NCBI GenBank assembly: GCA_964452555.1
Contig: CAYVMI010000018.1
Coordinates: 32,329 to 96,328 of the forward strand
DNA length: 64,000 nucleotides
From: an uncultured Desulfobacterales bacterium
Lineage (GTDB): Bacteria > Desulfobacterota > Desulfobacteria > Desulfobacterales > B30-G6
Direction of reading: 5' to 3'
Part shown: in pieces, positions 1 to 33,627 of the stretch
Position numbering within the stretch: position 1 is the first letter of the stretch
Layout of the letters: each line of letters opens with the position of its first letter
Notes under the pieces: model-generated
What the model saw: the letters and a program-made list of their open reading frames with translations, nothing else
What the model was told of the DNA's origin: nothing
The model's database searches: none
Program-made: the position numbers and the translations under genes

Positions 1-643
1 CGTCGTCGTCCACGCCGCAAAGCCCCGGACAGCTGTCATCGTTCATGTCGCCGGGCGGATCTTCGTCCACATTGTTGTCGCCGTCATCGTCTATTCCGTT
101 AATAGGATCATCGTTCCGGCTGCTGCTCTCATCATCTGAATCCGACCCATCCCCTCCATCCACCTCGCCACTTCCGCTATCATCAATTAAATAAATGCCC
201 GCAACCGCATCATAATTCAGGTCATCGGAAACATCTTCATCCACCAGTCCATCCTTGTCGTCATCGGCATCCGGAATTCCGTCCTGGTTCAAGTCGATAT
301 AGAGCGGCAGGGCCACCGCCAATACCGCCGTGTATTTGGTGCTGTCGTCCGTGGGCGGCGTGGGGGGTACGGTTTCCTCACGGATATTTTCGGCCCAGTT
401 GGTGCTATCCTTGTCGTTCAGGGGCAGCTGGAGATAGCGGGTATGGCTCACCGCCTTGACCATGCGCTGCATGGCAAAACGGGCCTGCCGCGTGAGGGCG
501 TTGATCTCCCGGCTGCGGTCATAGGATTGCATGGCATGCCCCACCAGCTCGGACAAGCCCAGGACCAGTATGGCCCCCATACTGATGGCCGCCAGCAGTT
601 CGATCAGGGTCAAGCCATTGTTATTTTTGATTCCGTACCGCAT
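1..643 (-). CDS. Minor pseudopilin (prepilin-type N-terminal cleavage/methylation domain) followed by acidic thrombospondin-type-3-like repeats; N-terminal part only, C-terminus lies beyond window start
   Basis: Absent from ORF track because it runs off the edge. Own translation from ATG 643..641: MRYGIKNNNG-LTLIELLAAISMGAILVLGL (G/LTLIE motif + hydrophobic helix), later DLNQDGIPDADDDKDGLVDED and DDDGDNNVDEDPPGDMNDDSCPGLCGVDDD; frame open to position 1. Confidence 0.75.
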   Translation of the reverse strand, partial: MRYGIKNNNGLTLIELLAAISMGAILVLGLSELVGHAMQSYDRSREINALTRQARFAMQRMVKAVSHTRYLQLPLNDKDSTNWAENIREETVPPTPPTDDSTKYTAVLAVALPLYIDLNQDGIPDADDDKDGLVDEDVSDDLNYDAVAGIYLIDDSGSGEVDGGDGSDSDDESSSRNDDPINGIDDDGDNNVDEDPPGDMNDDSCPGLCGVDDD

Positions 644-732
644 GGATTTTGTGTTTGGTATTTCATGTTTTGTGTTTCGTGGTACGGGTTTGTGTTATGA
701 GTCTTAGCACCCCAACGTCATAACCACTGATT

Positions 733-812
733 GTCGTTCCCGCGGAAGCGGGAAACCAGACAGAGCCTCTCGCTAAAAGCTTATCCTGGATCCCCGATTT
801 CTCGGGGATGAC
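733..812 (+). repeat. Dual-hairpin REP-like element, copy A
   Basis: gtcgTTCCCGCggaaGCGGGAAaccag ... cctgGATCCCCGatttCTCGGGGATgac; same two-hairpin layout as 4149..4234. Track ORF 663..902 is just its translation (WFPASAGTT, VIPEKSGIQ). Confidence 0.8.
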
Positions 813-1027
813 AACCGGAGACGGCTGGGATGCTGTAAGCCATGTCCTGCAACCCGAATCCCGGAACTCGTAACCCGGAACTTGAATCCTACACCCCTTC
901 AAACCTCCACCCCTACAACCCTTTATGAAAGCCTAATAGCCTAAATCTTCTGTCTCCTGTCTTCTGACTCCCCAGGCCACCATAACCCAGAGCCTGCCGA
1001 AGGGCGACGGCGGCTGACTCCTGAATT

Positions 1028-1474
1028 CTATCTTTTCGTCAACGTCTCCATCCCCTCCAGCGTATTCTCTATCTGCACCCGCGCCCACAGCAGACCGTCA
1101 TCCACCCCGGTAAAGTTGTCGTCATCGGCATCGGCATTGTCGCCGTCATAGCGCGCCAGAAAAACCAATAGGCGCCGCTCGGTACCGGCGGCGTCCGAAT
1201 AGGCCGCCACAATCACACCCGGCCCGCCGGCTGCGTCAGCCGCTGCCTGCAGTTCATCGAAGGGCTTGGCCAGGACTTCCTCCAGTTTCCCGGATATGCG
1301 ATAATGGTCGACCGCTCGGATTTCGTGGATATCACCGCCTTGGACACCCCCGAATACCGCGCTGATGGCCGGTATCAAAGTCAGAGCAATTAGTATCACC
1401 GCCACCAGCACTTCCACATAGGAAAATCCTTTTTCTATTTTTAACCAATTAAAATTATTTGAAAAAAAATTCAT
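1028..1474 (-). CDS. Minor pseudopilin (GspI/PilV-like, prepilin-type N-terminal domain)
   Basis: Internal start of track ORF 1028..1633: MNFFSNNFNWLKIEKG-FSYVEVLVAVILIALTLIPAI; ATG 1474..1472 overlaps upstream stop as ATGA. Confidence 0.75.
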   Translation of the reverse strand: MNFFSNNFNWLKIEKGFSYVEVLVAVILIALTLIPAISAVFGGVQGGDIHEIRAVDHYRISGKLEEVLAKPFDELQAAADAAGGPGVIVAAYSDAAGTERRLLVFLARYDGDNADADDDNFTGVDDGLLWARVQIENTLEGMETLTKR

Positions 1475-2019
1475 TGCACCGTAACCCTCCCGCTGATGCC
1501 GTGCAAGGTTACCACACGGGATATGGCCCCGGCTGAAAAAGTTATGTCCAGCTGGTTCACCAGTACGTCTGACGGATCGGCACACCAGGGGGTGCCGTTG
1601 GCATCGAAATACGTATTGCCGGCGACGCTGCAATTTCCACGAAATGAAATTGCACGGTTTACACTTTCAGAATAGGCAAACCTATGCGAAGCCAGATCGA
1701 TGTCGTAGAGATTTTTACTTAAAGGATGGTAAACGTCGTATATCGGCGTCCAGGGATTGGTGGTGGTGTCCAGACGAAATACGCGGATGCGGGTGACTTC
1801 CGCGCCCGCTATATTTCGAAACCCAAAGGGCGCCCCCTGCTGCATGGCCAGGCTGCGGGCATAGCGCATGCTCTGCGCAAATTCTTCGGCCGCCAGCTCC
1901 AACTTGGCGTGGCCGCCGACCGAAAAACTGGGGATCGCCAACATGGCGGCGAACCCCAGGATAGTAATCACCAGCAGCAGCTCAACCAGACTCAGACCAG
2001 CCTGTGCAGGCGCCTTCAT
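1471..2019 (-). CDS. GspH/FimT-family pseudopilin
   Basis: MKAPAQAG-LSLVELLLVITILGFAAMLAIPSF prepilin motif; 182 aa; in pilin gene run. Confidence 0.8.
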   Translation of the reverse strand: MKAPAQAGLSLVELLLVITILGFAAMLAIPSFSVGGHAKLELAAEEFAQSMRYARSLAMQQGAPFGFRNIAGAEVTRIRVFRLDTTTNPWTPIYDVYHPLSKNLYDIDLASHRFAYSESVNRAISFRGNCSVAGNTYFDANGTPWCADPSDVLVNQLDITFSAGAISRVVTLHGISGRVTVQ

Positions 2020-2024
2020 GCCAT

Positions 2025-2573
2025 TTACAAGGTGTCGTGGGCACCGTTGTCGGCGGCAATGAGCACACCGGTTACGGGATAAAATTTCCAGCCAAAATCC
2101 TGCCCAGCCGAACTTCTGACCGTAATGTCGGCCTCGTCAAAATCGGCCGTGACATCTGTTTTATTGTTATACGGGTTTGTGGGCAGGGTTTGTTTTTTCA
2201 GGTAGGGTCCGTAAATGAATGCCCCTCCCTTAGTGTCTGCGGTCTGACCATCCACGTCCGTATACCGAGTCAATTGGGGCACGATGGCCGCGATGGCTTC
2301 GGCATCCGAGGCCGTGGCCGCCCCGTCGGTATGTTTGGTGGATCCGGGATACTTGCTGTCATGCTGATGGTAATAGAGCTCGACGGCATTGCGCAAGGCG
2401 CTCAGGTTGGTTGACAGCGTGTTGAGTTTGGCATCCTCGGTCGAAACCGCCACCTGCGGAATGATGATCATGGCCAGAATACCCAGCACGATCACGACAA
2501 TCAACATCTCGATCAGGGTAAAACCGGACTGTTTCCGTAGCAATCTCAACCCCTTGTCTATGGACGTTTTCAT
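2025..2573 (-). CDS. Major pilin / GspG-like pseudopilin
   Basis: MKTSIDKGLRLLRKQSG-FTLIEMLIVVIVLGILAMIIIPQ; start moved to ATG 2573 which has AAGGAG 9 nt upstream. Confidence 0.85.
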   Translation of the reverse strand: MKTSIDKGLRLLRKQSGFTLIEMLIVVIVLGILAMIIIPQVAVSTEDAKLNTLSTNLSALRNAVELYYHQHDSKYPGSTKHTDGAATASDAEAIAAIVPQLTRYTDVDGQTADTKGGAFIYGPYLKKQTLPTNPYNNKTDVTADFDEADITVRSSAGQDFGWKFYPVTGVLIAADNGAHDTL

Positions 2574-2675
2574 GACTTGTGTCTCCTTACACATACAGGT
2601 TTTCTTCCTTAAATCTCTCTGTAAATATATATCGGCAGTTTATTGAAATCCTTTAGTAAAAAAGTTAAAGGGTGG

Positions 2676-2836
2676 GAAGCAGGAGTCAGAAAACAGCAGG
2701 CTGTAGGCTGAAGACTGTTAGGCTGTTTGGCGCCAGATGTTGACCCGTAATCCGAAATACAAACCCGAAACTCGCAACACACAACCCGATTCTGAATTCT
2801 GACTCCTGAATTCTGTCTTCTGACGCCTGTTTTCTG
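2676..2836. repeat. Low-complexity word-tile spacer with inverted words (caggagtcag / ctgactcctg; aaaacagcagg / cctgttttctg) plus aggct- and aacccg-type tiles
   Basis: Read directly; words and their reverse complements occur within 160 nt between gspF-like stop and pilin start. Confidence 0.7.
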
Positions 2837-2843
2837 TTTCGAA

Positions 2844-3995
2844 TCAATGCAAGGCTTGCGATAACTTGAACAATGGCAAAATAATCGAAGAAACTATCAC
2901 CCCCACAATCCCTCCCATCACGATCAAGGCAATCGGCTCGATCAGGGAGGCAAATTTCTTTAATTCCTGTTCGATCTCCATATCGTAAAACCGGACCAGC
3001 CGCATGAGCACCTCCGGCAGCTTACCCGCCTCTTCACCGATGGCCACCATCTGTTTCACGGTTTGAGGAATATAGGCGTACGTGGCGAAAGGCTGGGAAA
3101 ACCGCCCACCTTGATCGATATGCGTGCGGATACGCTCAACAAATTGACGGTAGTACTGATTCCAAATGGTGGGACGGGTTACGTCCATGGCTTCCAGCAG
3201 GGGTACATGGCTGTCCATGAGGTATCCCAGGGTTCTTAGCATTTCGCAGGTATATATCTTGTTCGCCAGACCGGATATGAGCGGACCGCTGATTAATACT
3301 TTGTCCAATATGCGCCGCCCCCAGGGGCTTTTGACAAACAGCATACCCCCAAAAGCAATTCCGATACTACCCAGGATGTAAACCCACCAGTACAACCGTA
3401 ACGAATCGCTGGCAGCCATGAGCAAACGTGTGGATAGGGGCAATAGGTCTTCCTTGCCTTCAAAAAATGCCGTAAACTTGGGCAGCACCGCCACCAGCAC
3501 AAATACCACCACGATCATACCAAACAGCATCAAGACCCCCGGATAGGTCAAGGCAGAGCGCAGTTGGGTCATAACGGCCTGCCGCTTTTCCTGCATCTCC
3601 ACCACCCGATCCAGAATCTTTTTAAGAAATCCGCCGGTCTCACCGGCCCGAATCATGCTGACGGTCTGTTGGTTGAATATCTTGGGGTGGCCCTGCATGG
3701 CTTCCGACAATTGACGCCCGGCCTCGATCCTCCCCGCCATATCCAGGATTGCCGCTCGAAACATTGGATTTTGAACCTCTTCGGCCACAGACTTCAAGGC
3801 CACTGTCAGAGGGGTGCCGATTTCAAGCATTAAGGCCAGCTGCGTGTTGAAAAACATCACCTCCTTGGCTGTGGCGTGCTTTTTAAACCGCTCCAGGAGA
3901 TCGCCCTGCGTAAACCCGATCTTTGGCTTCTTGATTTTAGAACCGTTTAGTGCGGCCGTATTCACGGCACCATTTGTATTAAAATTGAGAGCCAT
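2844..3995 (-). CDS. Type II secretion/type IV pilus platform protein (GspF/PilC family)
   Basis: 383 aa, duplicated GspF-type domain, three hydrophobic segments, typical ...MIRAGETGG... and ...MVAIGEEAGKL... motifs. Confidence 0.9.
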   Translation of the reverse strand: MALNFNTNGAVNTAALNGSKIKKPKIGFTQGDLLERFKKHATAKEVMFFNTQLALMLEIGTPLTVALKSVAEEVQNPMFRAAILDMAGRIEAGRQLSEAMQGHPKIFNQQTVSMIRAGETGGFLKKILDRVVEMQEKRQAVMTQLRSALTYPGVLMLFGMIVVVFVLVAVLPKFTAFFEGKEDLLPLSTRLLMAASDSLRLYWWVYILGSIGIAFGGMLFVKSPWGRRILDKVLISGPLISGLANKIYTCEMLRTLGYLMDSHVPLLEAMDVTRPTIWNQYYRQFVERIRTHIDQGGRFSQPFATYAYIPQTVKQMVAIGEEAGKLPEVLMRLVRFYDMEIEQELKKFASLIEPIALIVMGGIVGVIVSSIILPLFKLSQALH

Positions 3996-4148
3996 AATAC
4001 TACTTTAGCCTTTTAGGTATTTAGACTGTAGGCAGTAGGCGTTCAACCGCCGAAGAGCCTATTAATTCTGCTTAATGCTTCATTTGCCTTAAGCTATAAG
4101 CAACTGTGGCATTTGCCTTAGTGCTTAAAGCTGAACTCGCCCCTTCCT

Positions 4149-4234
4149 GTCATTCCCTCGGAAGAGGGAATCCAGTCAACACCGTCTGCTAATAGCTAAA
4201 GGCTTTTCTGGATCCCCGATTGCTCGGGGATGAC
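4149..4234 (+). repeat. Dual-hairpin REP-like element, copy B
   Basis: gtcATTCCCTCggaaGAGGGAATccag ... ctgGATCCCCGattgCTCGGGGATgac; the first stem differs from copy A by a compensatory pair (G-C to T-A). Confidence 0.85.
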
Positions 4235-4405
4235 ATCCGTATGTTGGGATGTTCGATGTTAAAGCAGTTTATGCTGGATACTGCTTTAGCTTTTTAGGTG
4301 TTTAGACTGTAGGCTGTAGGCGTTTAACCGCCTAACAGTCAAAAAGTCTTCAGCCTAACAGCCTTGACTCCTGAATTCTGTCTTCTGACTTCTGTCTCCT
4401 GTCTC

Positions 4406-4615
4406 CTAAACTAACGATCTCGCCTTCTTCACATCCCCCACCAGCTCGATGTTGCCGCAGTCCAGACACATAAAACCTTTTACAGCCAAGTCGGCTGTCT
4501 GCATCGCAAAAAAATTGACGCTATCCGGTCGAAAATATACCCTGCCGGATGATTGAGCCTTACCCGCGGCCATTTTTTTGCTGCCGCATCGCAAACAAGA
4601 TTTTTGATCGGTCAT
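4406..4615 (-). CDS. Small zinc-ribbon protein (CxxC ... CxxC), function unknown
   Basis: 69 aa; CLRCGS ... CLDCGN pairs; isolated between two repeat-filled spacers inside the pilus operon. Confidence 0.5.
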   Translation of the reverse strand: MTDQKSCLRCGSKKMAAGKAQSSGRVYFRPDSVNFFAMQTADLAVKGFMCLDCGNIELVGDVKKARSLV

Positions 4616-4835
4616 GGTTGTTGTCTCTTTTCCTTGGTTTTTATTAATGTCGTATTCTCATTCCCCATTTTATCGAAATGAAAAGTAAAGGCCAGGATGC
4701 CGGATGCTTGATCCTTGATGCTAGTTGCTGGATGCTGGTCAACCCGCAACCCAATTCCCGTAACCCTTCACACCTCCAAACCTACACCCTCCAACCCTCT
4801 CTAACAGCCTAACAGTCTTCAGCCTAATAGCCTGG

Positions 4836-6542
4836 TTAAATGTCCAACGACGACACCCGATGCACCTCCTCAATCGTGGTCTGGTGCTCGAGCACCTTTT
4901 GATACCCCGCCGTCTTAAGACCGCGATATCCGTTGGTGTTACAGTGCTTTCGGATCTCATCGATGGTGGGATTCTCCAGGATCAGGGTTTGCAAATCCGC
5001 ATCCATGGTCAAGAGTTCATGGATGCCGGTCCGGCCTTTGAATCCGGAGTCGTAGCATGCGCGGCAGCCTTCACCCCGATACAGCTTTTGACGCTTTTTA
5101 GCATCGATTCCCAACGCGGTCATTTCAACCTCCGAGGGGAAATAAGCCGCTTTGCACTCCGGGCATATGGTCCGCACCAGACGCTGGGACAGAGCCGCCA
5201 GCAGAGACGACGACAGCAGATAAGGCTCGATCCCCATCTCCAGCAGCCGCGTGATGGAGCTGGGGCTGTCATTGGTATGCAAGGTGGAAAGCACCAGATG
5301 ACCGGTCAGCGAAGCCTGAATTGCGATCTCGGCTGTCTCCCGGTCGCGGATCTCCCCCACCATAATCACGTCCGGGTCCTGCCGCAGGGCATGCCGGATA
5401 AAAGTGGCAAACTTGAGTCCGATGGCCGCATTGACCTGGTTTTGGTTGATATCGGCGATCTGGTATTCCACCGGATCTTCCACCGTGATGATATTGCGCT
5501 CGGGAGTGTTCAGCAGCGAAACTCCTGAATACAGGGTCGTGGTCTTGCCGCTGCCGGTGGGTCCGCATACCAGGATGAGACCATGGGAAGACCGCACAAG
5601 CGATTTAAATGTTTCCAACAAATCTTCGTCGAAACCCAGGCTGTTCAAATCCAGGATCGCCTGGCTGCGATCGAGGATCCGCATGACCACCTTTTCACCG
5701 TATACCCCCGGCATGGATGAAAAGCGCAGATCCACCACTTTGCCGTCCGCCACCACCTGGATACGACCATCCTGGGGCAGGCGTCTTTCGGCAATATTCA
5801 GCTTGGACATGACTTTCAGCCTGGAAACCACGGCCGGATGCAGCTCGATTTTTTGGGGGCGCTGTTCATACAACATACCGTCCACGCGCACCCGAATACG
5901 TAAGCGGTCTTCCTGGGGTTCGATGTGGATATCGCTGGCGCCGTCTCGTATGGCACGCAACAAAATCAAATTGGCGAGATTGACGATGGGGCTGTCCTCA
6001 GCCATTTCTGCCAGTTCAGCTATTTCAGCCTCGGAACGCCCCTCCACCACATCGATGCTGGATTCATCGGCGCTGGACATGAGTTCATCGATGCTGGCAT
6101 CTCCCTGATAGGCCTGGGGAATCGCCTCTAAAATATCTTCGGAACGACAGATGACCGGCTGAACCTCAAGATTGGTTATTTTGCGCACTTCATCAAAAAC
6201 ATTAAACCCATAGGGGTCCGATGTTGCCAGGGTGATCACTCCGTTGACCACAAACATGGGCAGAACCTGGTAATGGAGGGCTTTTTCCTTGGGTAGAATT
6301 TGGACGATCTTGGGATCCACCAGGCCTTTGCGCAGCCAGACATGCGGAATCCCCATCTGCTCACCCAGGGCCTTGGACAGTTCCTCCTTGGTTAAGATGC
6401 CCTCATCGATCAGCAGCTGTCCTAAGGGTTTGCCGGTTTCCTTTTGCAGACGCAATAAGCTGGTTAGTTTTTCCGGTTCAACCTTGCCGCTTTGAACCAG
6501 AATTTCCCCCAGCTTCCTTCTTTTTTTGATGATGCGCGTCAT
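4836..6542 (-). CDS. GspE/PilB/MshE-family secretion ATPase with N-terminal MshEN-type c-di-GMP-binding domain
   Basis: 568 aa; Walker A GPTGSGKTTT, Asp/His boxes, tetracysteine CPECK...CRAC; N-terminus carries two 24-residue MshEN-like motifs (see findings). Confidence 0.95.
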   Translation of the reverse strand: MTRIIKKRRKLGEILVQSGKVEPEKLTSLLRLQKETGKPLGQLLIDEGILTKEELSKALGEQMGIPHVWLRKGLVDPKIVQILPKEKALHYQVLPMFVVNGVITLATSDPYGFNVFDEVRKITNLEVQPVICRSEDILEAIPQAYQGDASIDELMSSADESSIDVVEGRSEAEIAELAEMAEDSPIVNLANLILLRAIRDGASDIHIEPQEDRLRIRVRVDGMLYEQRPQKIELHPAVVSRLKVMSKLNIAERRLPQDGRIQVVADGKVVDLRFSSMPGVYGEKVVMRILDRSQAILDLNSLGFDEDLLETFKSLVRSSHGLILVCGPTGSGKTTTLYSGVSLLNTPERNIITVEDPVEYQIADINQNQVNAAIGLKFATFIRHALRQDPDVIMVGEIRDRETAEIAIQASLTGHLVLSTLHTNDSPSSITRLLEMGIEPYLLSSSLLAALSQRLVRTICPECKAAYFPSEVEMTALGIDAKKRQKLYRGEGCRACYDSGFKGRTGIHELLTMDADLQTLILENPTIDEIRKHCNTNGYRGLKTAGYQKVLEHQTTIEEVHRVSSLDI

Positions 6543-6907
6543 GATCTCTTGTGGGCCAGGGCTTCGTTGATATCCTTGTAAACAAACAGTATGTTAATAA
6601 TGCGCGTGGCCAAAAGAATATCCCGACAGACTTCATTCAGGCCGGCGATTTTAAGGGCACCCCCATTCTGCATTAGATTATCATGGGTTTCCACCAGCAA
6701 CTCCAAAGCCGCGCTGTCCAGGTGATCCACCTTTTTTAAATCCAGGATGATTTCTGTATGGCCGGCGTATATTTTCTCCTTGATTTTTTTATCTAGGTTC
6801 TCACAATTTTCCCAGGTGATCGATTGCTTCAGGGCCAGAGCCGCACGCCCGTCGATATTAACGCTTTTGACGGAATCCCCCTCCTGAGCTTGTGGTTTAG
6901 TTGGCAT
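6539..6907 (-). CDS. STAS-domain protein (anti-sigma-factor-antagonist fold)
   Basis: Internal start of track ORF 6539..7252: MPTKPQ...ILDLKKVDHLDSAALELLVE...GGALKIAGLN; GGAGAGGTG SD upstream of ATG 6907; stop overlaps ATPase start (ATGA). Confidence 0.85.
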   Translation of the reverse strand: MPTKPQAQEGDSVKSVNIDGRAALALKQSITWENCENLDKKIKEKIYAGHTEIILDLKKVDHLDSAALELLVETHDNLMQNGGALKIAGLNEVCRDILLATRIINILFVYKDINEALAHKRS

Positions 6908-8417
6908 AAGACACCTCTCCCACCAGGTAGCCGGCCTCATCCACGATTTGGCTAAATACGGACACAATCTTGGGATCCAACTGACTGCCGGCCACTTCTT
7001 TAACGATAGACAAAGCTTTGTATAATGATTTGGCCGACCGGTAGGACCGGGTGGAACTGATGGCATCGAAAGTGTCGGCCACTGCGATAATTCGGGCTGA
7101 TAGGGGAATCTGCAGACGGGCCAGACCGCTTGGATATCCGTTGCCGTCATAACGTTCATGGTGATGCAGGATGCCGGGCAGAGACTCCACCAACTGTTCC
7201 ACCGGCTTGAGAATCTCAAATCCCTTGGCCGGGTGGTCTTTGACAACCTCAAACTCCTCCTCGGTCAATTTGCCGGGTTTGTTCAGAATGGTCTCCGGGA
7301 TACCGATTTTGCCGATATCGTGTAAAATTGAGGCCCAGCGAAGCGCCTCCAGTTCACCACCCTGCATACCCAATTTCCTCCCTATTTGCATGGAATACTG
7401 GGAAACGCGCTCAGAATGACCCCGGGTGTAAACGTCTTTAGCCTCGATGGCAAAGACCAGCGACTTGACCATGTTGATGATAAATACTTCCAGGTCCTGG
7501 TACAGGTTGGTGTTTGCAATCACTACACTTAACTGTTCAGCCAGAGAAACCAAAAGCTGCAATTCACCCTGGCGGAAAATTTCATTCATATTAAAGGATA
7601 CCAGCCCCAGCCAGCCATAGAATCCTTCTTCATGGTCGATCCGGACTGCCAGGAAACGGAACTCTGTCTGGGAGAATGATCGGTAGACCGGATTTGAACC
7701 GGATCGATTGACTATAAAATACTTGTCTCCGGTTGAGATAATCTCCTCGGGGATGGAATCAATCAGCCTGTGATAGAAACTCATATCTTCCCTTAGGTGA
7801 TCATCAAGGTTAGGTTGAGCAACCAGCGTATTGTATTCGGGACTATCGTTTAAGATAGCAAAGGCAGCATCTGAACGCAGGTTGATCAGCAAACTTTTGA
7901 TCAAGCTTTCCAGCATTGTGTTGGAAAATTTCAGCGTCTTGATCTGCGATGCGATTTTACCGTAAAGGAAAAGATCTTCAAAAGACTGGTCCAGCTCTTC
8001 GGCCAGGTCATTGACCTCTTCCCGCGCCTCCCAGCTTTCCTGAAGCAGCTTGGCCAAACTACCCAGAAAATTTTCCATCTCCATGGCATGTTGCCAAACA
8101 CGGGGGTCGTCAGATGCCTCCGTGGCCTGGGTACGGCTCTCATCCTCATAAGCGATCAAGGTTCCAAAGGGACCTTTTCCGTTGGACAATGGATACCCGC
8201 ACATGAATTGGCGGCCGTTATATAGGTCATGCTGATAGCGATTTTCCCTCAACACAATTTTAGACAAACCTTGAATCGCTTGGTTAAAGCTTGGATCCGT
8301 ATCATTCTGCTCCGGGTCGGGATACAGCATATGGCCGTTAAGATCCCATACCTGATAATGTAGTTGACTGATGGGTGTCAGATTTGTCAGAAATTCTTTC
8401 AGCTCGGTCAATTCCAT
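6897..8417 (-). CDS. HD-GYP c-di-GMP phosphodiesterase with N-terminal sensory (GAF-like) region
   Basis: HSERV...LHDIGKIGIP...HHERYDGNGYPSGL motifs. Confidence 0.9.
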   Translation of the reverse strand: MELTELKEFLTNLTPISQLHYQVWDLNGHMLYPDPEQNDTDPSFNQAIQGLSKIVLRENRYQHDLYNGRQFMCGYPLSNGKGPFGTLIAYEDESRTQATEASDDPRVWQHAMEMENFLGSLAKLLQESWEAREEVNDLAEELDQSFEDLFLYGKIASQIKTLKFSNTMLESLIKSLLINLRSDAAFAILNDSPEYNTLVAQPNLDDHLREDMSFYHRLIDSIPEEIISTGDKYFIVNRSGSNPVYRSFSQTEFRFLAVRIDHEEGFYGWLGLVSFNMNEIFRQGELQLLVSLAEQLSVVIANTNLYQDLEVFIINMVKSLVFAIEAKDVYTRGHSERVSQYSMQIGRKLGMQGGELEALRWASILHDIGKIGIPETILNKPGKLTEEEFEVVKDHPAKGFEILKPVEQLVESLPGILHHHERYDGNGYPSGLARLQIPLSARIIAVADTFDAISSTRSYRSAKSLYKALSIVKEVAGSQLDPKIVSVFSQIVDEAGYLVGEVSYAN

Positions 8418-8794
8418 TAGGTGGTTTCCCCATTGTATGCTTGTATATTCTGTAATATTTCCATTGGGCTGAATGGCTTTTCCAGTAATATGGTATCTTG
8501 CAGCTCTTTGACCCAGATAATGTCTTGCGGATCTATACGGGCGGTCACCACGATGGTCAGAAAAGGTTTCTCCTTTTTAAGCGGGTTGGTTCGAATGCAA
8601 AGCGTTTTGCCGTCCATTATGGGCATATTGATGTCGGTTATGACCACATGGGGCCGGTTCTCTTGAATCAATTCCAGAGCTTCCTGCCCGTTTTTGGCCA
8701 TGACTACCCGCATACCCTGCTTTTTGAGTTTGATTTCCAAAACCCGGCGGATATGGGCTTCATCGTCTACTATAAGTGCCGTTTTAATCGTCAA
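8417..8794 (-). CDS. Single-domain response regulator (CheY-like receiver)
   Basis: ALIVDDE...VVITDINMPIMDG...; I prefer the TTG start at 8794 (GGAGGA 8 nt upstream, 11-nt overlap with kinase) over track ATG 8851 (68-nt overlap). Confidence 0.8.
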   Translation of the reverse strand: MTIKTALIVDDEAHIRRVLEIKLKKQGMRVVMAKNGQEALELIQENRPHVVITDINMPIMDGKTLCIRTNPLKKEKPFLTIVVTARIDPQDIIWVKELQDTILLEKPFSPMEILQNIQAYNGETT

Positions 8795-10634
8795 TGTAGT
8801 ATTCCTCCATGGGAATGCTAATGATAAAATAGGTGCCTTTTCCGAGTTCACTTTTTACGTCGATCCTGCCACCATGCAGGTTGATAATCTCTGCAGCAAT
8901 GCATAATCCCAAGCCGGTACCTTGATTATCCTGAACCTTGGGATTGGACGAACGATAGAATTTATCGAAAATGTGATCCAGATCTTCCTGGGACATGCCG
9001 TAACCGGTATCGCTGATATCAAAAATGATATTGCCGCCCTCTTTCCGCAAGCCGAAGTCGATCACACCCTTTTGGGGCGTGTATTTAACCGCATTTCCGA
9101 GTATGTTGATAATGGCCCCCTTGAGCAGCTCTTTATCCCCCATAAAAACCGGGAAATTGTCAGGTGCATGACGCTCGATGGCGATCCCCTTTTTCTTGGC
9201 GCTGCCTTGCACCGAGACTAGACAATCCGTAAACAGCGAATCGGATTTAACAATATCTTTACTCAATGTAAGGCTGCCCATCTCGATTCTTGAGAGGTTC
9301 AGTAAATCTTTGATCAACCGCGATAGTCTCTTGGTTTCCTTGTTGATGGTATTAAAAAATTCCTTTTGGGTCTCAACATCCTCAATTTCACCTTCCATCA
9401 ACATTTCGCTGTAGGATTGAATGGTCGTCAGCGGTGTCATGATCTCATGCGACAAGTGGGCCACAAAAGCGATGGTATTTTTTTCCGCGTTTTTCTGGGT
9501 GGTAATATTGTTGAACGTAATTAAACTACCCGAAGAATGATTGTCTGCTCCGGTTAACGGCGTACAGGTGACTGAAAAGACATCTGTCTCCGAAAGCTCC
9601 GTAAGGGATAGCTCCACATGGTTTTGGGCCCGCAGCTGTTCTAGGCTGCCTTGTTGCGAAATGAAATGCACCAGAGCTGAATTGGAAAAAACTTCCTCAA
9701 AAGGCCGGTCGATCATATCGCGCCGAGTTTTGCCCAGATGCATCAACAGATAGTCATTGATGTGAACCACGCAGCCTTGAATATCGATAATCATGATGCC
9801 GTAATTAATGGTATTGAGAATATCGACGATCTGCCTTTTTTCATATTTGACGACACCCACCTGGGAGGCCAGACCCTTGTTATTTCCCTCGATTTTTTTG
9901 AGCTGTTTTTTCAATCGCACCAAAGCCACATGAAAATCTTTAATCATGCCATCAATGCTACCGATGCCGAAGGCCCGGGCCAACTCGTTTTTGGTCCGAC
10001 GCCGCGATGATTTGGGCACCAACTTGGAAACGGTCCCCCGGAGCGGCTTGACTGCCTGAAGGATGCCGTATTGGAATATGATGACGACGGCGGTAATAAA
10101 AAAGAAAAGCATCCCCAACAGGCTGATCCTTTCCTTGGTAAATAGGGATAGCGGCTCGAGCATCAGTCCGATATTAACGGTACCGGCCCGCTCCCCGTTT
10201 TCGAAAATCGGTTTTGAAAAGTCGAAAAGCCGGGCATCGTTATCTGTAAACTCAAAGGGTGAAAACACCAGCCCGGCCGCTTTTACCCTGCTTGAGTTTT
10301 GATCATTCTTGATGGCCAAATTGACCTGGGGCAGCCTAAAGGAAACCAATGTGGCCCCCGATCGATCGACAATGTGACAGTATGCCAGTCCTTCCTTGGT
10401 GGAATACTCCATCAGGGTTCTCACGAAGAAATCATGTTCCTTCTCAAAGGTTGCCATCGGTTGTAAGGCGATCAAGCTGACCAGGTGGTTGCCTTTGGTA
10501 TAGACTTCCTGGACCCGCTCCTTATTTTCGGTCCTGAGTTGAAAATTGGTTATAACAAATAGGCCCGAGAAAATGAGTAATATGAGAAAAAAATTGATGG
10601 CTTTTGTTTTCAGCACGTCGATGCTTCCCTTCAT
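8784..10634 (-). CDS. Membrane sensor histidine kinase (two TM segments, extracytoplasmic domain, PAS, HisKA, HATPase_c)
   Basis: H-box FVAHLSHEIMTPL, G-boxes DTGYGM and GTGLGL; start moved to MKGSIDV (ATG 10634, AAGGTGGTG upstream). Confidence 0.9.
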   Translation of the reverse strand: MKGSIDVLKTKAINFFLILLIFSGLFVITNFQLRTENKERVQEVYTKGNHLVSLIALQPMATFEKEHDFFVRTLMEYSTKEGLAYCHIVDRSGATLVSFRLPQVNLAIKNDQNSSRVKAAGLVFSPFEFTDNDARLFDFSKPIFENGERAGTVNIGLMLEPLSLFTKERISLLGMLFFFITAVVIIFQYGILQAVKPLRGTVSKLVPKSSRRRTKNELARAFGIGSIDGMIKDFHVALVRLKKQLKKIEGNNKGLASQVGVVKYEKRQIVDILNTINYGIMIIDIQGCVVHINDYLLMHLGKTRRDMIDRPFEEVFSNSALVHFISQQGSLEQLRAQNHVELSLTELSETDVFSVTCTPLTGADNHSSGSLITFNNITTQKNAEKNTIAFVAHLSHEIMTPLTTIQSYSEMLMEGEIEDVETQKEFFNTINKETKRLSRLIKDLLNLSRIEMGSLTLSKDIVKSDSLFTDCLVSVQGSAKKKGIAIERHAPDNFPVFMGDKELLKGAIINILGNAVKYTPQKGVIDFGLRKEGGNIIFDISDTGYGMSQEDLDHIFDKFYRSSNPKVQDNQGTGLGLCIAAEIINLHGGRIDVKSELGKGTYFIISIPMEEYYIDD

Positions 10635-11052
10635 TTGAACACCACCTTGATGTGGCAACTTTTAATTAGCCGATGCATTAAATGCCGGTCGCATGCCCGC
10701 ACATGGATATCCTGTGCTATGGTTCTATATCGGCCAACGCACCAGATTCTTTAGTTTTTCTTTATAAAACCATAAAATCGTCGGGTGATTTTATTTTTTC
10801 TAAAGCTTTGTGATATTTTTCCGATATTAAAAACGTAAACCTAAATTTGCTATAGCTTGTCTCAAAATGAAGCTATGAATCTCTGGCAACGCATAGGAGA
10901 TTCCAGCCTGTTAGGTTATTAGGCTATGCCGGACAAGCGAAAAAAGGAGCTTACTCCGGGCATGTGAGCATTTGAACTGCTCTGCAATCCCGCCTAAACC
11001 GGGATCAGGGGGACCTTATTTTTTGTGAGGTTGGCTATAGAAGGAGCATGTT

Positions 11053-11874: not shown

Positions 11875-12068
11875 GGACATCCTATAAAAGAAGGCTTGCA
11901 ACTACCGGCATCGGTCCTATATTTTCACCTATATTGTTTGATTTTATCTCTTGTAAAATTCATATTTAATGGAAATTGGGCCAAAATCGACCTGTAACCG
12001 ATAATCAATGCTAACAGCAAAGAGCCACAAGTTAATGGCTGGCTTAAACGAGATCCGAGAGGTGAATT

Positions 12069-13661: not shown

Positions 13662-13868
13662 ATGCAAACAGTTACTGTATCGCCGAAATTTCAGGTCGTT
13701 ATACCAAAGGTCATTCGTGAGGCTATGCAGATCCGTCCCGGCCAAAAGTTAAAAATCATCGAGTATGATGGACGAATCGAATTAATCCCAGAAAAGGACA
13801 TCGTAGAATTACAAGGATTTCTTAAAGGTATTAATACGAATTTCATTCGAGAGGACGACCGCCTATGA
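13662..13868 (+). CDS. vapB: AbrB/SpoVT-fold antitoxin (VapB-type)
   Basis: MQTVTVSPKFQVVIPKVIREAMQIRPGQKL; 4-nt overlap with the PIN gene. Confidence 0.8.
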   Translation: MQTVTVSPKFQVVIPKVIREAMQIRPGQKLKIIEYDGRIELIPEKDIVELQGFLKGINTNFIREDDRL

Positions 13869-14242
13869 ATATTGTGGATTCCTCGGGATGGCTTGAATAC
13901 TTTTCAGACGGCTTCAATGCAGAGTATTATAAGCAACCGCTTCAAAATCCTTCTGACTTGATCGTTCCATCCATAACTATTTACGAAGTTTTTAAGGTTG
14001 TTCTACGCGAAGCCGATGAAAAAAATGCACTGCTATCCATAGCTGCCATGCAAAAAGGAACGGTTGTTGATTTAAATCCCAGCATTGCCATCAATGCTGC
14101 CAAGCTGAGTCTTAATCATCATCTCCCTATGGCGGACAGCATTATATTAGCCACTGCAAAAAAGTATGACTGTCTTATTTGGACTCAGGATTCCGATTTT
14201 AAAAATCTACCAAATGTTAATTATTTTCCGATTAAAAAATAA
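13865..14242 (+). CDS. vapC: PIN-domain ribonuclease toxin (VapC)
   Basis: IVDSSGWLEY ... ADSIILATAKK ... WTQDSDF acidic PIN residues. Confidence 0.85.
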   Translation: MNIVDSSGWLEYFSDGFNAEYYKQPLQNPSDLIVPSITIYEVFKVVLREADEKNALLSIAAMQKGTVVDLNPSIAINAAKLSLNHHLPMADSIILATAKKYDCLIWTQDSDFKNLPNVNYFPIKK

Positions 14243-14300: not shown

Positions 14301-14351
14301 ATATCAATTTAAGCGGCGATGCCACACCCGCTGTAAAATTGCAAAGGATTG

Positions 14352-14480
14352 GTACCTGAGTTGAGCGATTGTCGAGGTTGCCGCATATACAAGGAAGATG
14401 CTTTTCCGCTATAGTTGACTATGCGGGACAGCATCTGACGCCGTAGATGTGGTGAGATCGGCAATCCCGGAGGGTTTTAG
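14352..14480 (+). repeat. Rod-like structured repeat (about 113-nt core), copy 1
   Basis: attgtcgaggttgccg...agatgct..ccgctatag-ttga-ctatgcgg..agcatct...gatcggcaatccc; near-identical to 18842..18969. Confidence 0.8.
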
Positions 14481-14561
14481 TCTTTGGGATATAAGATCGA
14501 TATCATTCCTTGATTTAAAGTATTCACAATTCACCCCAAAAACTAAAACGCTCAGTTCAGG

Positions 14562-16390: not shown

Positions 16391-16543
16391 CTAAGGGTTC
16401 CAGGAGTCAAGGATCCAAGGGGTCGAGTGAACAAACAAATCGCTGTGAGCTTTTTGCTTTAAGCTGCAAGATAAGGAGCCAAGAGCTAAAAACGAAGAGC
16501 TTATCACTTGAATCCTCGGCTCCTTGAATCCTCGAATCCTTAG
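16391..16543. repeat. Word-tile inverted arms in the etfB / FeS-oxidoreductase spacer
   Basis: ctaagggttccaggagtcaaggatccaagg (16391..) versus cttgaatcctcggctccttgaatcctcgaatccttag (..16543); both arms end in ctaagg/ccttag. Confidence 0.75.
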
Positions 16544-16556
16544 ACCATCAGATCCT

Positions 16557-18659: not shown

Positions 18660-18841
18660 TAATTTTTTTCCTTCATTGCATTGAACGATGATTCATTTGT
18701 AGCTATATTGTAACCAAACCGTCGATATCATAAAAGCATCAACCGGGCAAGTCCCCATAAAAAACTGCGCCAAGTTCAGCTTTCTATTGAAAATTGCCGA
18801 ATTATACTTTTAAGATCCGGTCTACAGCTGCAAGTTACAGT

Positions 18842-18969
18842 GGCCTGATGTGGGCAATTGTCGAGGTTGCCGTAGCTACAAGGAAGATGCTGTTTCGCTA
18901 TAGTGTACTATGCGGGATGGCATCTGACGCAGTAGATGCGGTAAGATCGGCAATCCCGTAGGGTTTCAG
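18842..18969 (+). repeat. Rod-like structured repeat, copy 2
   Basis: About 14 mismatches over roughly 113 nt relative to copy 1 (aligned by eye); same orientation. Confidence 0.8.
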
Positions 18970-19054
18970 ATTTTAAGAAATTAAATGATTAGAATCCTAA
19001 TTGTTATATAATTTCTATCGATTATTCTTAAAATCTGAAATGCTCCCATTAGGC

Positions 19055-20878: not shown

Positions 20879-21178
20879 TTTTCCTCTCCTATTTATAAGG
20901 CTGTAGGCTATAGACTGTTAGGCTATTAGGCGCCTATAGCTCATTGTTATATGTTATAAGTTCTGTCTTAAACCTTTTAAACTTTTATACTTTATTCGCT
21001 CCCTCCAAAACTGTGATGCTGGTTGCTGGATGCTAGTTGCCGGATGCTGGGGCGCTAGGACGCTTTATAGCTGTACCGCGTAACCCGAATCCCACGACCC
21101 GAAACACAAAACCCGACCCCCGCAACCCGTTCTCTGCTTACTGCTTACTCCATACTGCTTACCGCTTCTGTCTCCTGA

Positions 21179-21823: not shown

Positions 21824-21828
21824 TCATT
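21811..21828. promoter_or_regulatory. Candidate TetR operator: AATGAATG-ct-CATTCATT palindrome
   Basis: Perfect 8+8 inverted repeat spanning the annotated ATG and overlapping the predicted -10. Confidence 0.55.
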
Positions 21829-21854
21829 TTATTAGCCAATTAAGCGCATGTCAA
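21826..21854 (-). promoter_or_regulatory. Candidate sigma70 promoter of the tetR gene
   Basis: On coding strand TTGACA-17 nt-TAAAAT. Confidence 0.55.
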
Positions 21855-22110
21855 GCACTTTTTTGGATCATGTGTACCCAGTCACACCTGCCATTCTATC
21901 GAATAAGTAATTAATAATATTAGATAAAATAAAACATACCGATCAAACCGCCATTTTCAATTGCGGCAATAAAATTAAAATGAACTTATATTCATAATTT
22001 AGAACGACAGGGATAGTCCTGGAGAGACGGAAGGCAGAATATAGAATCGGGTTGTGGGTTGCATCTTGCAGGTTTCAAATTCGGTTTGCAATTATCATCC
22101 TCAATAAACT

Positions 22111-22195
22111 TGTCCCCTTGGAGGAGGGGATCGGGGATCCGGATTAGGCTCTGGGCCATCTGCAGGGACAGGATTCCCTCTTCCGAGGGAATGAC
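22111..22195 (-). repeat. Dual-hairpin REP-like element, copy C (inverted orientation)
   Basis: ggATTCCCTCttccGAGGGAATgac is the exact reverse complement of the copy B hairpin; the second hairpin is variant (gtccccttggaggaggggat). Confidence 0.75.
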
Positions 22196-22469
22196 GGGAA
22201 GGGCAAATGAAGCAGAAAGCAGTAAGGTCTAAGCGGTCAGCGGCCTAAAGCTGAAGGCTGTCAACTGCCGAACGGCATTCCAACCGCCAGCACCGAGAGT
22301 CCAGGATCAAGCATCAAGCATCCAGAACCCGGCATCATATTTTAGGGGTCAGCCGCCGTCGCCCCTTCGATATACTCAGGGCTATGACGGCCAGGGGAGA
22401 CAGAAGACAGAATGATGCTACGAGCTGCAGGTTACGAGTTGCAGGTTACGAGTTGCGAGATGCGGATCC

Positions 22470-22550
22470 GCTCATCCCCGAGAATCTGGGACTCAGATTC
22501 AGCTATTATCTGATAGCTTTCTCCGGAGCCCCTCTTCCGAGTGAGTGACG
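22470..22550 (-). repeat. Dual-hairpin REP-like element, copy D (degenerate)
   Basis: gctcatccccgagaatctgggact ... ggagcccctcttccgagtgagtgacg; decayed stems. Confidence 0.5.
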
Positions 22551-22633
22551 AAAGTAGTTAACTGTTAAGGAGTAAAATCAGATAACAAGAAGCTATAGGC
22601 GCCTAACAGTCTTCAGCCTAATAGCCTATCGGC

Positions 22634-24205: not shown

Positions 24206-24371
24206 AAGGTTTCACTTTCGTTTGCGCTAATCATAAGCCACCGACCTAGTCGGTGGTCGTTGACTCTCGTATTACCTTTTAAATTCGTTTGTTATCATCG
24301 CTATCGGGATCGCTATCGGGATCGGGATCGTTTCTTGATGAGTTATGCTCTGATGTTAGTGTTTCGATTTC

Positions 24372-24419
24372 GATACCGATACCGATACCGATACCGATAC
24401 CGATACCGATACCGATACC
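24372..24419. repeat. Perfect tandem hexamer (GATACC)x8
   Basis: Counted directly; flanked by degenerate units; imperfect inverse partner atcgctatcgggatcgctatcgggatcgggatcg at 24294..24330. Confidence 0.95.
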
Positions 24420-24680
24420 GATGGGGAAGATAAGCATATCCCCATGATTTTTCAAGCAAAGAAATAGATTGGTTTTAAGTTTTAGGTTTTAAGTTTTATG
24501 CTTGTATCAAGCTGAACGCCATCAGCCTAAAACAATCCTAACACTTAAAACCTAAAACCTAAAACTGAATATAAAACCTAAAACATAGACATCAATATCA
24601 GATTTTTATATATAATTTCAATTAGTTGAGTCTTTGCCCCCCCTAAAAACATATCAAGTACCACCTAGTGCCAATTTCTA

Positions 24681-24709: not shown

Positions 24710-24734
24710 TCTCCTTTGGTTTGCGAAGCTGATT

Positions 24735-24771
24735 TGCAAACGTTTGCGCTGCTGGGATGCAAACGTTTGCG
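24735..24771. promoter_or_regulatory. Two identical 14-mers TGCAAACGTTTGCG (12-bp perfect palindrome core), 23 bp apart; candidate LacI/PurR-type operators
   Basis: Cores at 24736..24747 and 24759..24770; extra half sites gtttgcg at 24719..24725 and ttgcaaac at 24780..24787. Confidence 0.6.
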
Positions 24772-24819
24772 GTCCCGAATTGCAAACCGAGAACAGGACT
24801 ACAACCAGGAGAATTAATT

Positions 24820-33242: not shown

Positions 33243-33352
33243 CGAAAGGGTTTAGGGTTGAAGGGGTGAAGGGTGCCATTAGCTGATAGCAATCAGTTAA
33301 TAGCGAAATTCTCATTTCCTAAGGCTATTTTAAAATCCCGATTCAATCACTC

Positions 33353-33392
33353 AAAAAGCCATAGGCGATTGCCTATGGCTTTTTTGCTTTTT
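33353..33392 (+). terminator. Rho-independent terminator of the hdr-met-OMP transcription unit
   Basis: agccataggc-gatt-gcctatggct + tttttgcttttt. Confidence 0.8.
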
Positions 33393-33504
33393 ACCGAAAA
33401 CGACCCTTTAAATCCTCCAAATCCCCAACCCTAAGACCCTCAGATTCTTACCCTTTAATCCTTGAACCCGATTGACGACAGATAAGCTTTTAACTACGGA
33501 TAAA

Positions 33505-33560
33505 ATAGAAAAGCCATAAGCGGTCAGCGATCAGCTGCTCACTGCTTATGGCTTTTTGCT
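33505..33560. terminator. Bidirectional terminator (serves fdhA on the minus strand)
   Basis: agccataagc-(22 nt)-gcttatggct with T-runs on both strands. Confidence 0.65.
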
Positions 33561-33627
33561 TAATGCTTCTCTTTAGACCACCCTTAAACCCTACAAACCT
33601 CCAACCCTTCAACCCTCTCGAAAGCAG

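Follow-up and report, generated by a model that had tools for sequence, protein, structure and literature searches.

Probable mosaics of tile arrays and CGTC-tagged palindromes between the genes of a Desulfobacterales type IV pilus cluster

Introduction

Long arrays of short repeats between bacterial genes have been described in several forms. We compare them here with four non-coding spacers that separate the genes of a type IV pilus/type II secretion system (T2SS)-like cluster in an uncultured Desulfobacterales bacterium (assembly GCA_964452555.1, contig CAYVMI010000018.1, positions 32,329 to 96,328); the whole stretch of 64 kb that was analysed is referred to as the window. In the Neisseria intergenic mosaic elements (NIMEs), hairpins of the ATTCCC-N8-GGGAAT type (dRS3) are interleaved with many short repeat families in long intergenic arrays (PMC1797815, PMC3733652), which often lie beside pilus or surface genes (PMC1797815, PMC3733652) and have been reported as not seen outside Neisseria (PMC1797815). 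The Desulfobacterales spacers share these features of structure and location, and in both systems the arrays keep syntenic positions while repeat number and length vary between close genomes, as seen when the window is compared with the related loci L001, L002 and L028-L030. They differ in belonging to another phylum and in lying inside an operon, with a strict transcriptional polarity. The bulk of each spacer consists of heptamer and octamer tiles and not of 50-150-bp repeat sequence (RS) elements, from which they are set apart by description of the neisserial RS. There is at most one inverted dimer per spacer, in place of long dRS3-RS-dRS3 chains, and no dRS3-targeting recombinase or phage was seen here.

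Repetitive extragenic palindromes (REPs) and bacterial interspersed mosaic elements (BIMEs) in E. coli operons are the textbook intercistronic hairpins that affect segmental mRNA stability or processing. The spacers resemble enterobacterial REP/BIME and the Pseudomonas system of REP doublets forming hairpins (REPINs) and REP-associated tyrosine transposases (RAYTs) in having inverted pairs of extragenic palindromes, a short spacer between them and compensatory changes in the stems. As with REP/BIME, these pairs follow stop codons closely, the neighbouring genes being co-directional or convergent, and would be transcribed with the operon. However, the tag is CGTC/TGTC here and GTAG in REP/BIME and REPINs, and the window spacers are several times longer than typical BIMEs and dominated by tandem tiles.

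A third likeness is with the intervening sequences of 23S rRNA in Coxiella burnetii and Leptospira, which carry an S23p ORF. In C. burnetii, tandem GACAGAT/GACAGAA heptamers, in a number that varies between strains, precede the S23p ORF (PMC4990558), and the 5' cut by RNase III falls at the first heptamer repeat (PMC4990558). The purine-rich heptamer 5' arm and the strain-variable copy number are shared, and a pairing 3' arm is present in spacer 2; the T1 tiles described below are the same kind of word and bracket PF05635 genes in the loci L025, L031 and L035. The copies in the window differ in lying in mRNA intergenic regions instead of helix 45 of rRNA and in having no S23p ORF. They mostly consist of the purine arm only, mixed with other tiles and REPs, and cleavage by RNase III would here be a prediction.

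Bacterial long simple-sequence heptamer repeats (LSSRs), such as TAACTGA of Beggiatoaceae, Cyanobacteria and Bacteroidetes and the cyanobacterial STRR, are also intergenic tandem heptamers oriented to the neighbouring genes, and the distribution of TAACTGA across phyla suggests horizontal spread (PMC4679880). TAACTGA units repeat perfectly in direct orientation, mostly a short way upstream of start codons, whereas the window tiles are degenerate, fall into at least eight families, stand in purine form right behind stop codons and in many cases have an inverted counterpart.

As wholes, the spacers are not NIMEs (there are no RS chains), not a REPIN-RAYT system (no cognate RAYT was found) and not intervening sequences (there is no ORF and the context is not rRNA). 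We consider it likely that they are lineage-specific, NIME- and BIME-like mosaics of tile arrays and CGTC-tagged REP dimers, hitch-hiking in the pilus cluster. They are not purpose-built, operon-specific regulators, because the same modules are spread genome-wide. We describe here the composition of the spacers, their genome-wide distribution, polarity and rapid turnover, their link to a gene cassette and, separate from the repeats, a conserved promoter motif of the pilin gene. NIME-like mosaics with dRS3-type hairpins exist outside Neisseria, and long intra-operon 'spacers' in metagenome-assembled Desulfobacterales genomes should be read in annotation as repeat mosaics, not as regulatory inventions.

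Composition of the spacers

The four spacers lie at 4616-4835 (spacer 4, 220 nt), 3996-4405 (spacer 3, 410 nt), 2574-2843 (spacer 2, 270 nt) and 644-1027 (spacer 1, 384 nt), given here in the order of transcription, on the minus strand. The original prediction, made from the DNA sequence and its ORFs, placed them downstream of overlapping signalling/ATPase genes, and the gaps between our gene calls match it exactly. Each spacer is a chain of short modules. In the mRNA sense, purine-rich tiles of 7-8 nt begin no more than about 10 nt after the upstream stop codon, and their pyrimidine-rich complements (T1', T2' and T4) and the C/A-rich T9 are placed nearer the next gene. The commonest family is T1, of the form xCAGRAx (for example GAGACAGGAGACAGAAGTCAGAAG; CAGGAG/CAGAAG); the others include T2 (TAGGCTG/GAAGACTG), T3 (CGGGTTx), T5 (AGGGTTG) and the pyrimidine tile T4 (AGCATCC type). 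Tandem Repeats Finder detected arrays of period 7, 8 and 14 in all four spacers and elsewhere, the units being degenerate with 66-95% matches.

Spacer 4 begins 0 nt after the GspE stop with T2 purine tiles of the TAGGCTG type (4801-4835), followed by T5 tiles of the AGGGTTG type (4761-4800), T3 tiles of the CGGGTT type (4739-4760), T4 pyrimidine tiles of the AGCATCC type (4692-4738) and the unique AT-rich leader of a small Zn-ribbon ORF (4616-4691). In spacer 3, the stop codon TAG of this ORF adjoins the first of the T1 purine tiles (4365-4405). A hairpin of T2 tiles (4278-4364), a REP dimer and TAAGC-type tiles (4057-4147) come after them, the dimer being formed by REPa (TGTCATCCCCGAGCAATCGGGGATCCAG, 4208-4235), a 32-nt spacer (4176-4207) and REPb (CTGGATTCCCTCTTCCGAGGGAATGACA, 4148-4175). 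A direct repeat of 61 nt surrounds this core, with copies at 3996-4056 and 4278-4338 that are 89% identical.

Spacer 2 has two parts. The repeat part (2674-2843) consists of T1 purine (2789-2843), T3 (2741-2788), T2 pyrimidine (2694-2728) and T1 pyrimidine tiles (2674-2693); the other part is the unique leader of the pilin gene (2574-2673), which carries a promoter motif of the sigma-28 (FliA) type. The T1 arms form a perfect stem of 12 bp (CAGGAGUCAGAA/UUCUGACUCCUG; 2674-2693 with 2797-2808) that closes a hairpin of about 130 nt in both the minimum free energy (MFE) and the centroid structures, and this order of T1, T3, T2' and T1' resembles an empty cassette. Spacer 1 contains T1 tiles at 1014-1027 and 945-969 on either side of a module M3 (CCGCCGTCGCCCTTCGGCAGGCTC..., 970-1013), then T2 (923-944), T5 (888-922) and T3 (846-887), a REP dimer (REPa 786-813, a 26-nt spacer at 760-785, REPb 732-759) and C/A-rich T9/T3-pyrimidine tiles (644-696) that reach the ATG of the next pseudopilin gene.

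The REP-like hairpins and inverted tile repeats of the original prediction were found at these positions, with repeats far above chance. Its description of the spacers as hairpin-rich holds statistically for spacer 3 only, where the RNA fold of the transcribed strand reaches -140.7 kcal/mol against -102.9 for shuffles (z = -7.5). The folds of spacer 2 (z = -2.06) and spacer 1 (z = -1.63) are marginal, and spacer 4 has no structure beyond shuffles (z = +0.42). Among the features of miniature inverted-repeat transposable elements, inverted tile arms are present; a constant unit length or a target duplication is not definable, and the 61-nt repeat is too long for a target duplication.

REP hairpins

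Spacers 1 and 3 each hold one inverted heterodimer, at 732-813 (26-nt gap) and 4148-4235 (32-nt gap), with the tags outward and the tails inward, and both stand between co-directional genes just after ORFs. One hairpin, TGTC-ATCCCCGA-GNAA-TCGGGGAT-CCAG, and its heterologous partner, CTGG-ATTCCCTC-TTCC-GAGGGAAT-GACA, are both 28 nt long. All 16 copies from the window and related loci have a YGTC tag (TGTC at 4148, 4235(-) and 813(-); CGTC at 22196(-)), and 15 of the 16 have a CCA tail after the stem. The stem has 8 bp, with A-T/T-A as its first pairs, and a loop of 4 nt, as in ATTCCCTC-GGAA-GAGGGAAT and ATCCCCGA-GCAA-TCGGGGAT. Compensatory changes occur at five of the eight stem pairs, and 99% of the cells are paired across the 16 copies, a percentage that is inflated since the set was chosen for pairing.

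Judged by sequence, the spacer hairpins belong to family CGTC-1 of the CGTC-tagged REP superfamily, as they show every feature by which this family was defined: an unpaired CGTC/TGTC tag, a stem of 8 bp that opens with A-T and T-A, a loop of 4 nt, a short CCA tail that is also unpaired, and inverted dimers 20-100 bp apart that come directly behind ORFs where the genes are co-directional or convergent (PMC3733652). Neisseria dRS3 has been equated with CGTC-1 (PMC3733652), and the dRS3 formula ATTCCC-N8-GGGAAT fits exactly at 4152-4171 (REPb of spacer 3, ATTCCCTCGGAAGAGGGAAT) and at 22173-22192. The remaining copies are ATCCCC...GGGGAT or GTTCCC...GGGAAC variants.

Three full dimers and a fourth with a variant partner hairpin were found in L001, and one REP is nested in another in L028. 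Scanning metagenomes with the exact REPa sequence gave two matches, both in unrelated AT-rich contigs (L037 722-749 and L038 449-476), and no further copies from the lineage of the window. Partners resembling dRS3 (CTGGATTCCTGCCTACGCAGGAATGACA) accompany the exact REPa in L037/L038 (also at 300-400). The occurrence of REPa in unrelated contigs indicates that this class of hairpin is widespread and crosses taxa.

Membership of a REPIN-RAYT system was considered, as inverted REP pairs are present, and was rejected because no REP-flanked RAYT was found in the window or the related loci. A 340-aa Y1 transposase gene (HUH, PF01797) with a DnaA_C-like tail and perfect 27-bp inverted repeats (TTAGGGACGTAGTTAAGTTTTAAAGTT) was observed at 1240-2346 of L028, and also in L029, inserted at TTTTAGGGAC between GGDEF and peptidase M17 genes; 11875-12068 of the window is the corresponding empty site. 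This is the only Y1 transposase seen, and its 27-bp inverted repeats are unrelated to the REPs.

Distribution and transcriptional polarity of the repeats

The same tile families, and one more REP hairpin, are present in at least seven further intergenic regions of the window. Repeat-bearing regions other than the spacers lie at 20879-21178, 21824-22633, 33243-33627, 47010-47563, 50759-50920 and 55917-56272, and there is a related tile in the intergenic region at 16500-16556. Enrichment of tile 8-mers in the intergenic DNA of the window (10 kb) is 10-90 fold; the 8-mer CAGCCTAA, for example, occurs 11 times there, where about 0.3 would be expected by chance, against once in the 54 kb of coding DNA. 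Where three or more tiles follow one another, the array is intergenic in 15 out of 15 cases, although 84% of the window codes.

The tiles are oriented to the genes that they follow. Among the 24 genes with a 3' gap of at least 100 nt, purine-form tiles (at least three within 50 nt of the stop) follow eight and pyrimidine-form tiles none, and a count by eye gave 11 genes with purine-form tiles after the stop. Upstream of start codons the bias is reversed (purine 0, pyrimidine 2). Because the rule holds on both strands, it follows transcription and not the direction of replication. Strict polarity together with adjacency to stop codons would need either a constraint at the RNA level or an insertion mechanism coupled to transcription.

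Heptamer tiles of a further family, T6 (AACATCG/TTCGATG), were seen in inverted pairs in intergenic DNA at 47093-47196 and 56077-56215, and a small Cys-rich ORF with no Pfam match (47240-47460(-)) lies between tile arrays.

Transcription signals

The sigma-28-type promoter motif of the pilin gene consists of a -35 element TAAAGGAT (2648-2655), N11 and a -10 element GCCGATAT (2629-2636) on the minus strand. The consensus TAAAGNNT-N11-GCCGATA has exact matches in the 64 kb only here (2630-2655(-)) and at 10728-10753(-), about 70 nt upstream of the histidine kinase gene. With up to two mismatches allowed there are six matches, where 1.19 were expected, and none of 100 shuffles reached six. The pilin-proximal motif is kept in L001, L003, L005, L007, L011, L012 and L020, and the kinase-proximal one in L028 (3508-3533). 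Near the pilin start of L028 no obvious match was found; a T1 array has entered there, separating the leader of the pilin gene from its start codon. A site with one mismatch was also noted before the divergent GGDEF gene (10801-10826(+)), and a motif with N12 spacing at 36638-36664(+), before the gene at 36952. The predicted sigma-28-type promoters before the kinase, divergent GGDEF and pilin genes suggest co-regulation with a flagellar/motility (FliA-like) regulon. A sigma-54 pilin promoter was considered and rejected for the window, as GGCA-N7-TTGCA-like motifs were found only in the more distant L009, L010, L013, L018, L019 and L021.

We regard it as very improbable that the spacers conceal independent genes, be it for small RNAs or for small proteins, or a promoter of its own for every downstream piece. 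The original prediction had named an independent promoter in each spacer as what would speak against its own interpretation; the leader of spacer 2 has one, as a reading with hidden genes would expect, while no further sigma-28-type site was found in spacers 1, 3 and 4. Scanning for sigma-70-like promoters gave none on the minus strand inside any spacer, with counts at or below shuffle expectation. The unique AT-rich leader before the Zn-ribbon ORF (4616-4691) could also be taken as a sign of a concealed gene, and mechanical ORFs of 45-79 aa overlap the spacers. These ORFs are, however, translated repeats, and the rearranged modules of L001 and L028 do not preserve them. No Rfam family was matched, either by the whole window at gathering thresholds or by 500-5000 at E up to 1, apart from one chance miRNA match inside a gene.

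Intrinsic terminators were likewise absent from the minus strand of every spacer (nine sites in the region, 7.8 expected). Without terminators in the spacers, GspF and the later genes probably depend on read-through.

Relatives and turnover

The nearest genome records are uncultured Desulfobacterales genomes assembled from metagenomes, and the order HD-GYP, STAS, GspE, GspF, pilin and minor pilins is kept across 26 loci. In relatives with 55-60% GspF identity, the GspE-GspF gap is mostly about 0-100 nt, apart from L011, L016 and L023 with 1.3-3 kb of other DNA, and the GspF-pilin gap is about 50-290 nt; the tile words were at background frequency in these relatives. Spacers built from modules were found in L001 (89% GspF identity), in L028, L029 and L030, which were identified through the Zn-ribbon protein, and partly in L002 (71%). 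The locus L025 (77%) has T1 arrays elsewhere, not in the gaps of the pilus cluster.

The spacers of L001 and L028-L030 are at the same places as those of the window, but they contain shuffled modules that match several, mostly non-syntenic spacers. For example, the first 82 nt of spacer 1 have their best match in L001 in the non-syntenic GspE-GspF spacer (2132-2214, 89%). The genes, by comparison, are colinear with L001 and L028 at 80-88% nucleotide identity, and the proteins of the window and L001 are 94% (major pilin), 78-83% (other pilins) and 89% (GspF) identical. The sole part of any spacer that is colinear with L001 is the pilin leader (84% over 75 nt). Turnover was also seen among L028, L029 and L030, loci that share an identical Zn-ribbon protein: between L028 and L029 the difference is a tandem duplication of 119 nt, and between L028 and L030 it is a single heptamer, gained or lost, at two sites. 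Repeat mosaics of this kind break short-read assemblies; the Logan contig that encodes the exact GspF protein spans only 1475 bp, and its two ends fall within the two spacers that flank the gene.

These comparisons bear on the original prediction, in which the spacers are evolved, operon-specific stabiliser or attenuator structures that set a high-pilin, low-ATPase ratio from one polycistronic transcript. Part of this idea stands. Hairpins and inverted tiles lie in the transcribed sense between co-directional genes, most clearly in spacer 3 (z = -7.5) and in the 12-bp perfect stem of spacer 2. There are no intrinsic terminators, the positions of the spacers are retained in close relatives, and REP/BIME are known to act in this way in E. 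coli. A design for this operon is nevertheless not what the data point to, and we consider the explanation unlikely. The same words fill other intergenic regions genome-wide, and in close relatives the content is shuffled, with only the promoter-bearing leader orthologous. At greater distance the gaps are mostly much shorter and tile words are not in excess, and spacers 1 and 4 have no excess structure. In addition, a difference between high pilin and low ATPase would be explained more simply by the conserved sigma-28-type promoter, which stands directly before the pilin gene in the conserved part of spacer 2.

The variability of the arrays could also be a function in itself, if arrays were kept by surface-structure genes for the exchange of pilus genes, or if heptamer slippage allowed reversible tuning (phase variation). 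Neisseria NIME arrays flank pilS and surface-protein genes and have been proposed to promote exchange (PMC1797815), and the differences of one heptamer and of 119 nt between loci with identical Zn-ribbon proteins would fit such a function, as would the T1 array between the pilin leader and start codon of L028 and a Zn-ribbon gene that moves or is absent among relatives. However, arrays also stand behind unrelated genes (for example those ending at 21179, 22634, 33628, 47564 and 50758), which leaves surface genes without enrichment. Between the window and L001, few proteins of the cluster are as well conserved as the major pilin, and no array of the window lies inside a coding region or between a predicted -35 and -10. 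We therefore give a contingency function even less weight than a stabilising one.

T1 tiles and the four-helix-bundle cassette

The T1 tiles also flank a gene cassette as its arms. The locus L025 has a PF05635 gene ('23S rRNA intervening-sequence protein', a bAvd-like four-helix bundle, E=3.6e-38) and a decayed copy of it, each bracketed by T1, with purine tiles upstream and pyrimidine tiles overlapping the stop codon. In L031 the same arrangement stands between argB and argG; this locus belongs to the sequencing study that also gave the contig with the exact GspF of the window, and its source is probably the window's own organism. A further cassette of this build lies between two co-directional genes in Calothrix sp. 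PCC 7507 (L035). The PF05635 cassettes are co-oriented with host genes and directly behind them in Desulfobacterales and in a cyanobacterium. The T1 arms of L031 form a 19-bp stem enclosing the ORF in the MFE and centroid folds.

The four-helix-bundle family comprises at least 8000 proteins with E below 1e-10. The best 120 homologues are 71-100% identical and span Desulfobacterales, Calothrix and Tolypothrix, those of Calothrix and Tolypothrix being 74-78% identical to the Desulfobacterales protein; across the two phyla, members are 72-86% identical. The tiles are also read into the predicted proteins: of 108 top homologues, 75 have a C-terminal hexapeptide like ILTPDS/ILNSDS, which is what T1 pyrimidine tiles (ATTCTGACTCCTGACTCC) encode, and over-called N-termini read SEVRSQKSG, which is the purine arm translated. 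A second kind of small gene inside tile arms is a GIY-YIG ORF: at 7074-7283 of L001, downstream of a GspJ-like gene, a shortened GIY-YIG nuclease ORF (PF01541, E=3e-9) and a REP dimer were observed between T1 purine and pyrimidine arms.

In the window, purine arms like the GACAGAW of C. burnetii are the T1 arrays at 4365-4405, 2789-2843, 945-969 and 1014-1027. By the likeness of their arms, the spacers of the window carry gene-less or one-armed versions of the T1 four-helix-bundle cassette. In the literature that was searched we found no report of Desulfobacterales intergenic repeats, and no link of a four-helix bundle to heptamer repeats outside the Coxiella intervening sequence. The polarity rule, and a tile-array link to an intervening-sequence/four-helix-bundle cassette in ordinary operons of two phyla, were unexpected.

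A broader interpretation can be offered tentatively, and we think it more doubtful than not. The heptamer-armed cassette, so far described only as a '23S rRNA intervening sequence', might belong to a family of hitch-hikers that spans phyla and is polarised with transcription. In Desulfobacterales and cyanobacteria such elements would insert where ordinary genes and operons end, directly behind the stop codon, and in Coxiella in rRNA genes; they would use the read-through of the host for their expression and leave gene-less arms behind. The double-stranded RNA (dsRNA) arms would be 'intervening sequences of mRNA' cut by RNase III, which would split the pilus transcript as 23S rRNA is fragmented, and the bAvd-like protein might bind heptamer arrays and aid their spread. 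With the cassette seen in plain protein-coding contexts, there is a concrete way to approach the nature of intervening sequences and their S23p ORFs and the means by which they move, both long a matter of debate.

How the mosaics may have arisen

In the reading that we favour, small repeated elements would accumulate at permissive positions just downstream of stop codons, where they could be tolerated as selfish or near-neutral hitch-hikers, and the tile arrays change by replication slippage and unequal recombination. Because there are no terminators, the mosaic would be transcribed as part of the cluster, and transcription from the kinase to GspF, and probably further, would read through the spacers. 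The dsRNA, clearest in spacers 2 and 3, may then be cut by RNase III or block 3' exonucleases as a side effect, so that the long transcript would be split into segments of differing stability. Most of the difference in expression between pilin and machinery could come from the sigma-28-type promoter of the pilin gene. It is plausible that an effect on RNA processing is a side effect in two spacers and not the reason for the existence of the spacers.

Several points weigh against this explanation. Read-through, cleavage and an effect on expression are steps that we infer. No partner for the purine arms was seen in the folds of spacers 1, 3 and 4; with the complementary T1 pair confined to spacer 2, and spacers 1 and 4 folding no better than shuffles, the idea of dsRNA processing suits two of the four spacers at best. 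No transposase is known for CGTC REPs (PMC3733652), and tblastn of the 64-kb window detected neither a Y1 transposase nor a PF05635 (S23p/four-helix-bundle) ORF, nor was a GIY-YIG gene found in it. The set of REPs was selected for pairing from candidates that are bimodal, 16 with 5-6 of 6 inner pairs and 10 with three or fewer, and the repeat census is based on one 64-kb window and a few short related contigs. Furthermore, the strict polarity and the adjacency to stop codons could reflect functional selection instead of tolerance.

The gene cluster and other observations in the window

The pilus cluster is on the minus strand, with genes called from ORFs and from Pfam and NCBIfam matches. It is headed by a block of five genes that overlap by 1-68 nt: a histidine kinase (8784-10658), a response regulator (8417-8851), HD-GYP (6897-8417) and STAS (6539-6904) genes and, as the final gene, a GspE/PilB-type assembly ATPase (4836-6542; Pfam T2SSE E=6.8e-136, NCBIfam GspE/PilB) with an N-terminal, c-di-GMP-binding MshEN domain (E=2e-16). 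Spacer 4, the Zn-ribbon ORF (4406-4615) and spacer 3 separate it from the GspF/PilC platform protein (2844-3995; Pfam T2SSF E=1.2e-51). Beyond spacer 2 are three closely packed pilin genes (1028-2573; gaps +5 and -4 nt) with N_methyl, T2SSG and GspH matches across them: the major pilin (2025-2573), with an AAGGAG Shine-Dalgarno sequence before the ATG at 2573 and an alternative ORF reading from 2594, a GspH-like minor pilin (1471-2019) and a pseudopilin (1028-1474). Spacer 1 is followed by a GspJ-like pseudopilin with a prepilin N-terminus (1-643, continuing past the start of the window; N_methyl E=1.9e-5 and a weak gspJ match).

The small Zn-ribbon ORF that the original prediction saw between two spacers encodes 69 aa with a CxxC...CxxC motif. 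To judge by its conservation it is a real, lineage-restricted gene, with 17 homologous clusters at 44-100% identity that share a conserved core (FLCLDCGNIELVGDVKKA), which rules out an artefact of repeat translation; no Pfam or NCBIfam family was matched. Its position varies: in the window and in L028-L030 (10001-10246 in L028) the gene stands between GspE and GspF, in L002 (11388-11594) between GspF and the pilin, and L001 lacks it. In this respect the gene behaves like a cassette. Distant homologues (P0016) occupy unrelated contexts, with no pilus genes among the gene calls, on which alone, without DNA, this context was judged. In the window and in P0002 the C-terminus of the protein is ...SLV, and the T1 array starts at exactly this point; other homologues are 4-7 residues longer.

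Other repeats in the window stand apart from the tiles. A 170-nt repeat that can form a long hairpin of about 100 nt occurs in two copies, 78% identical, in the intergenic regions at 14328-14497 and 18817-18986, and matched no Rfam family. In one divergent intergenic region there are perfect (CGATAC)x8.7 and ATCGGG/ATCGCT hexamer arrays (24297-24430 and 24719-24787). Three tandem 23-nt palindromes, GTTTGC-N11-GCAAAC, which look like operators, are located just upstream of the gene at 24860(+), and a perfect (CTTCTCGACCA)x3.1 tandem repeat is intergenic at 61770-61803. Finally, at 13662-14242 a small ORF that by eye is AbrB/MazE-like is followed by one of 126 aa (13865-14242), and the two are a candidate toxin-antitoxin pair.

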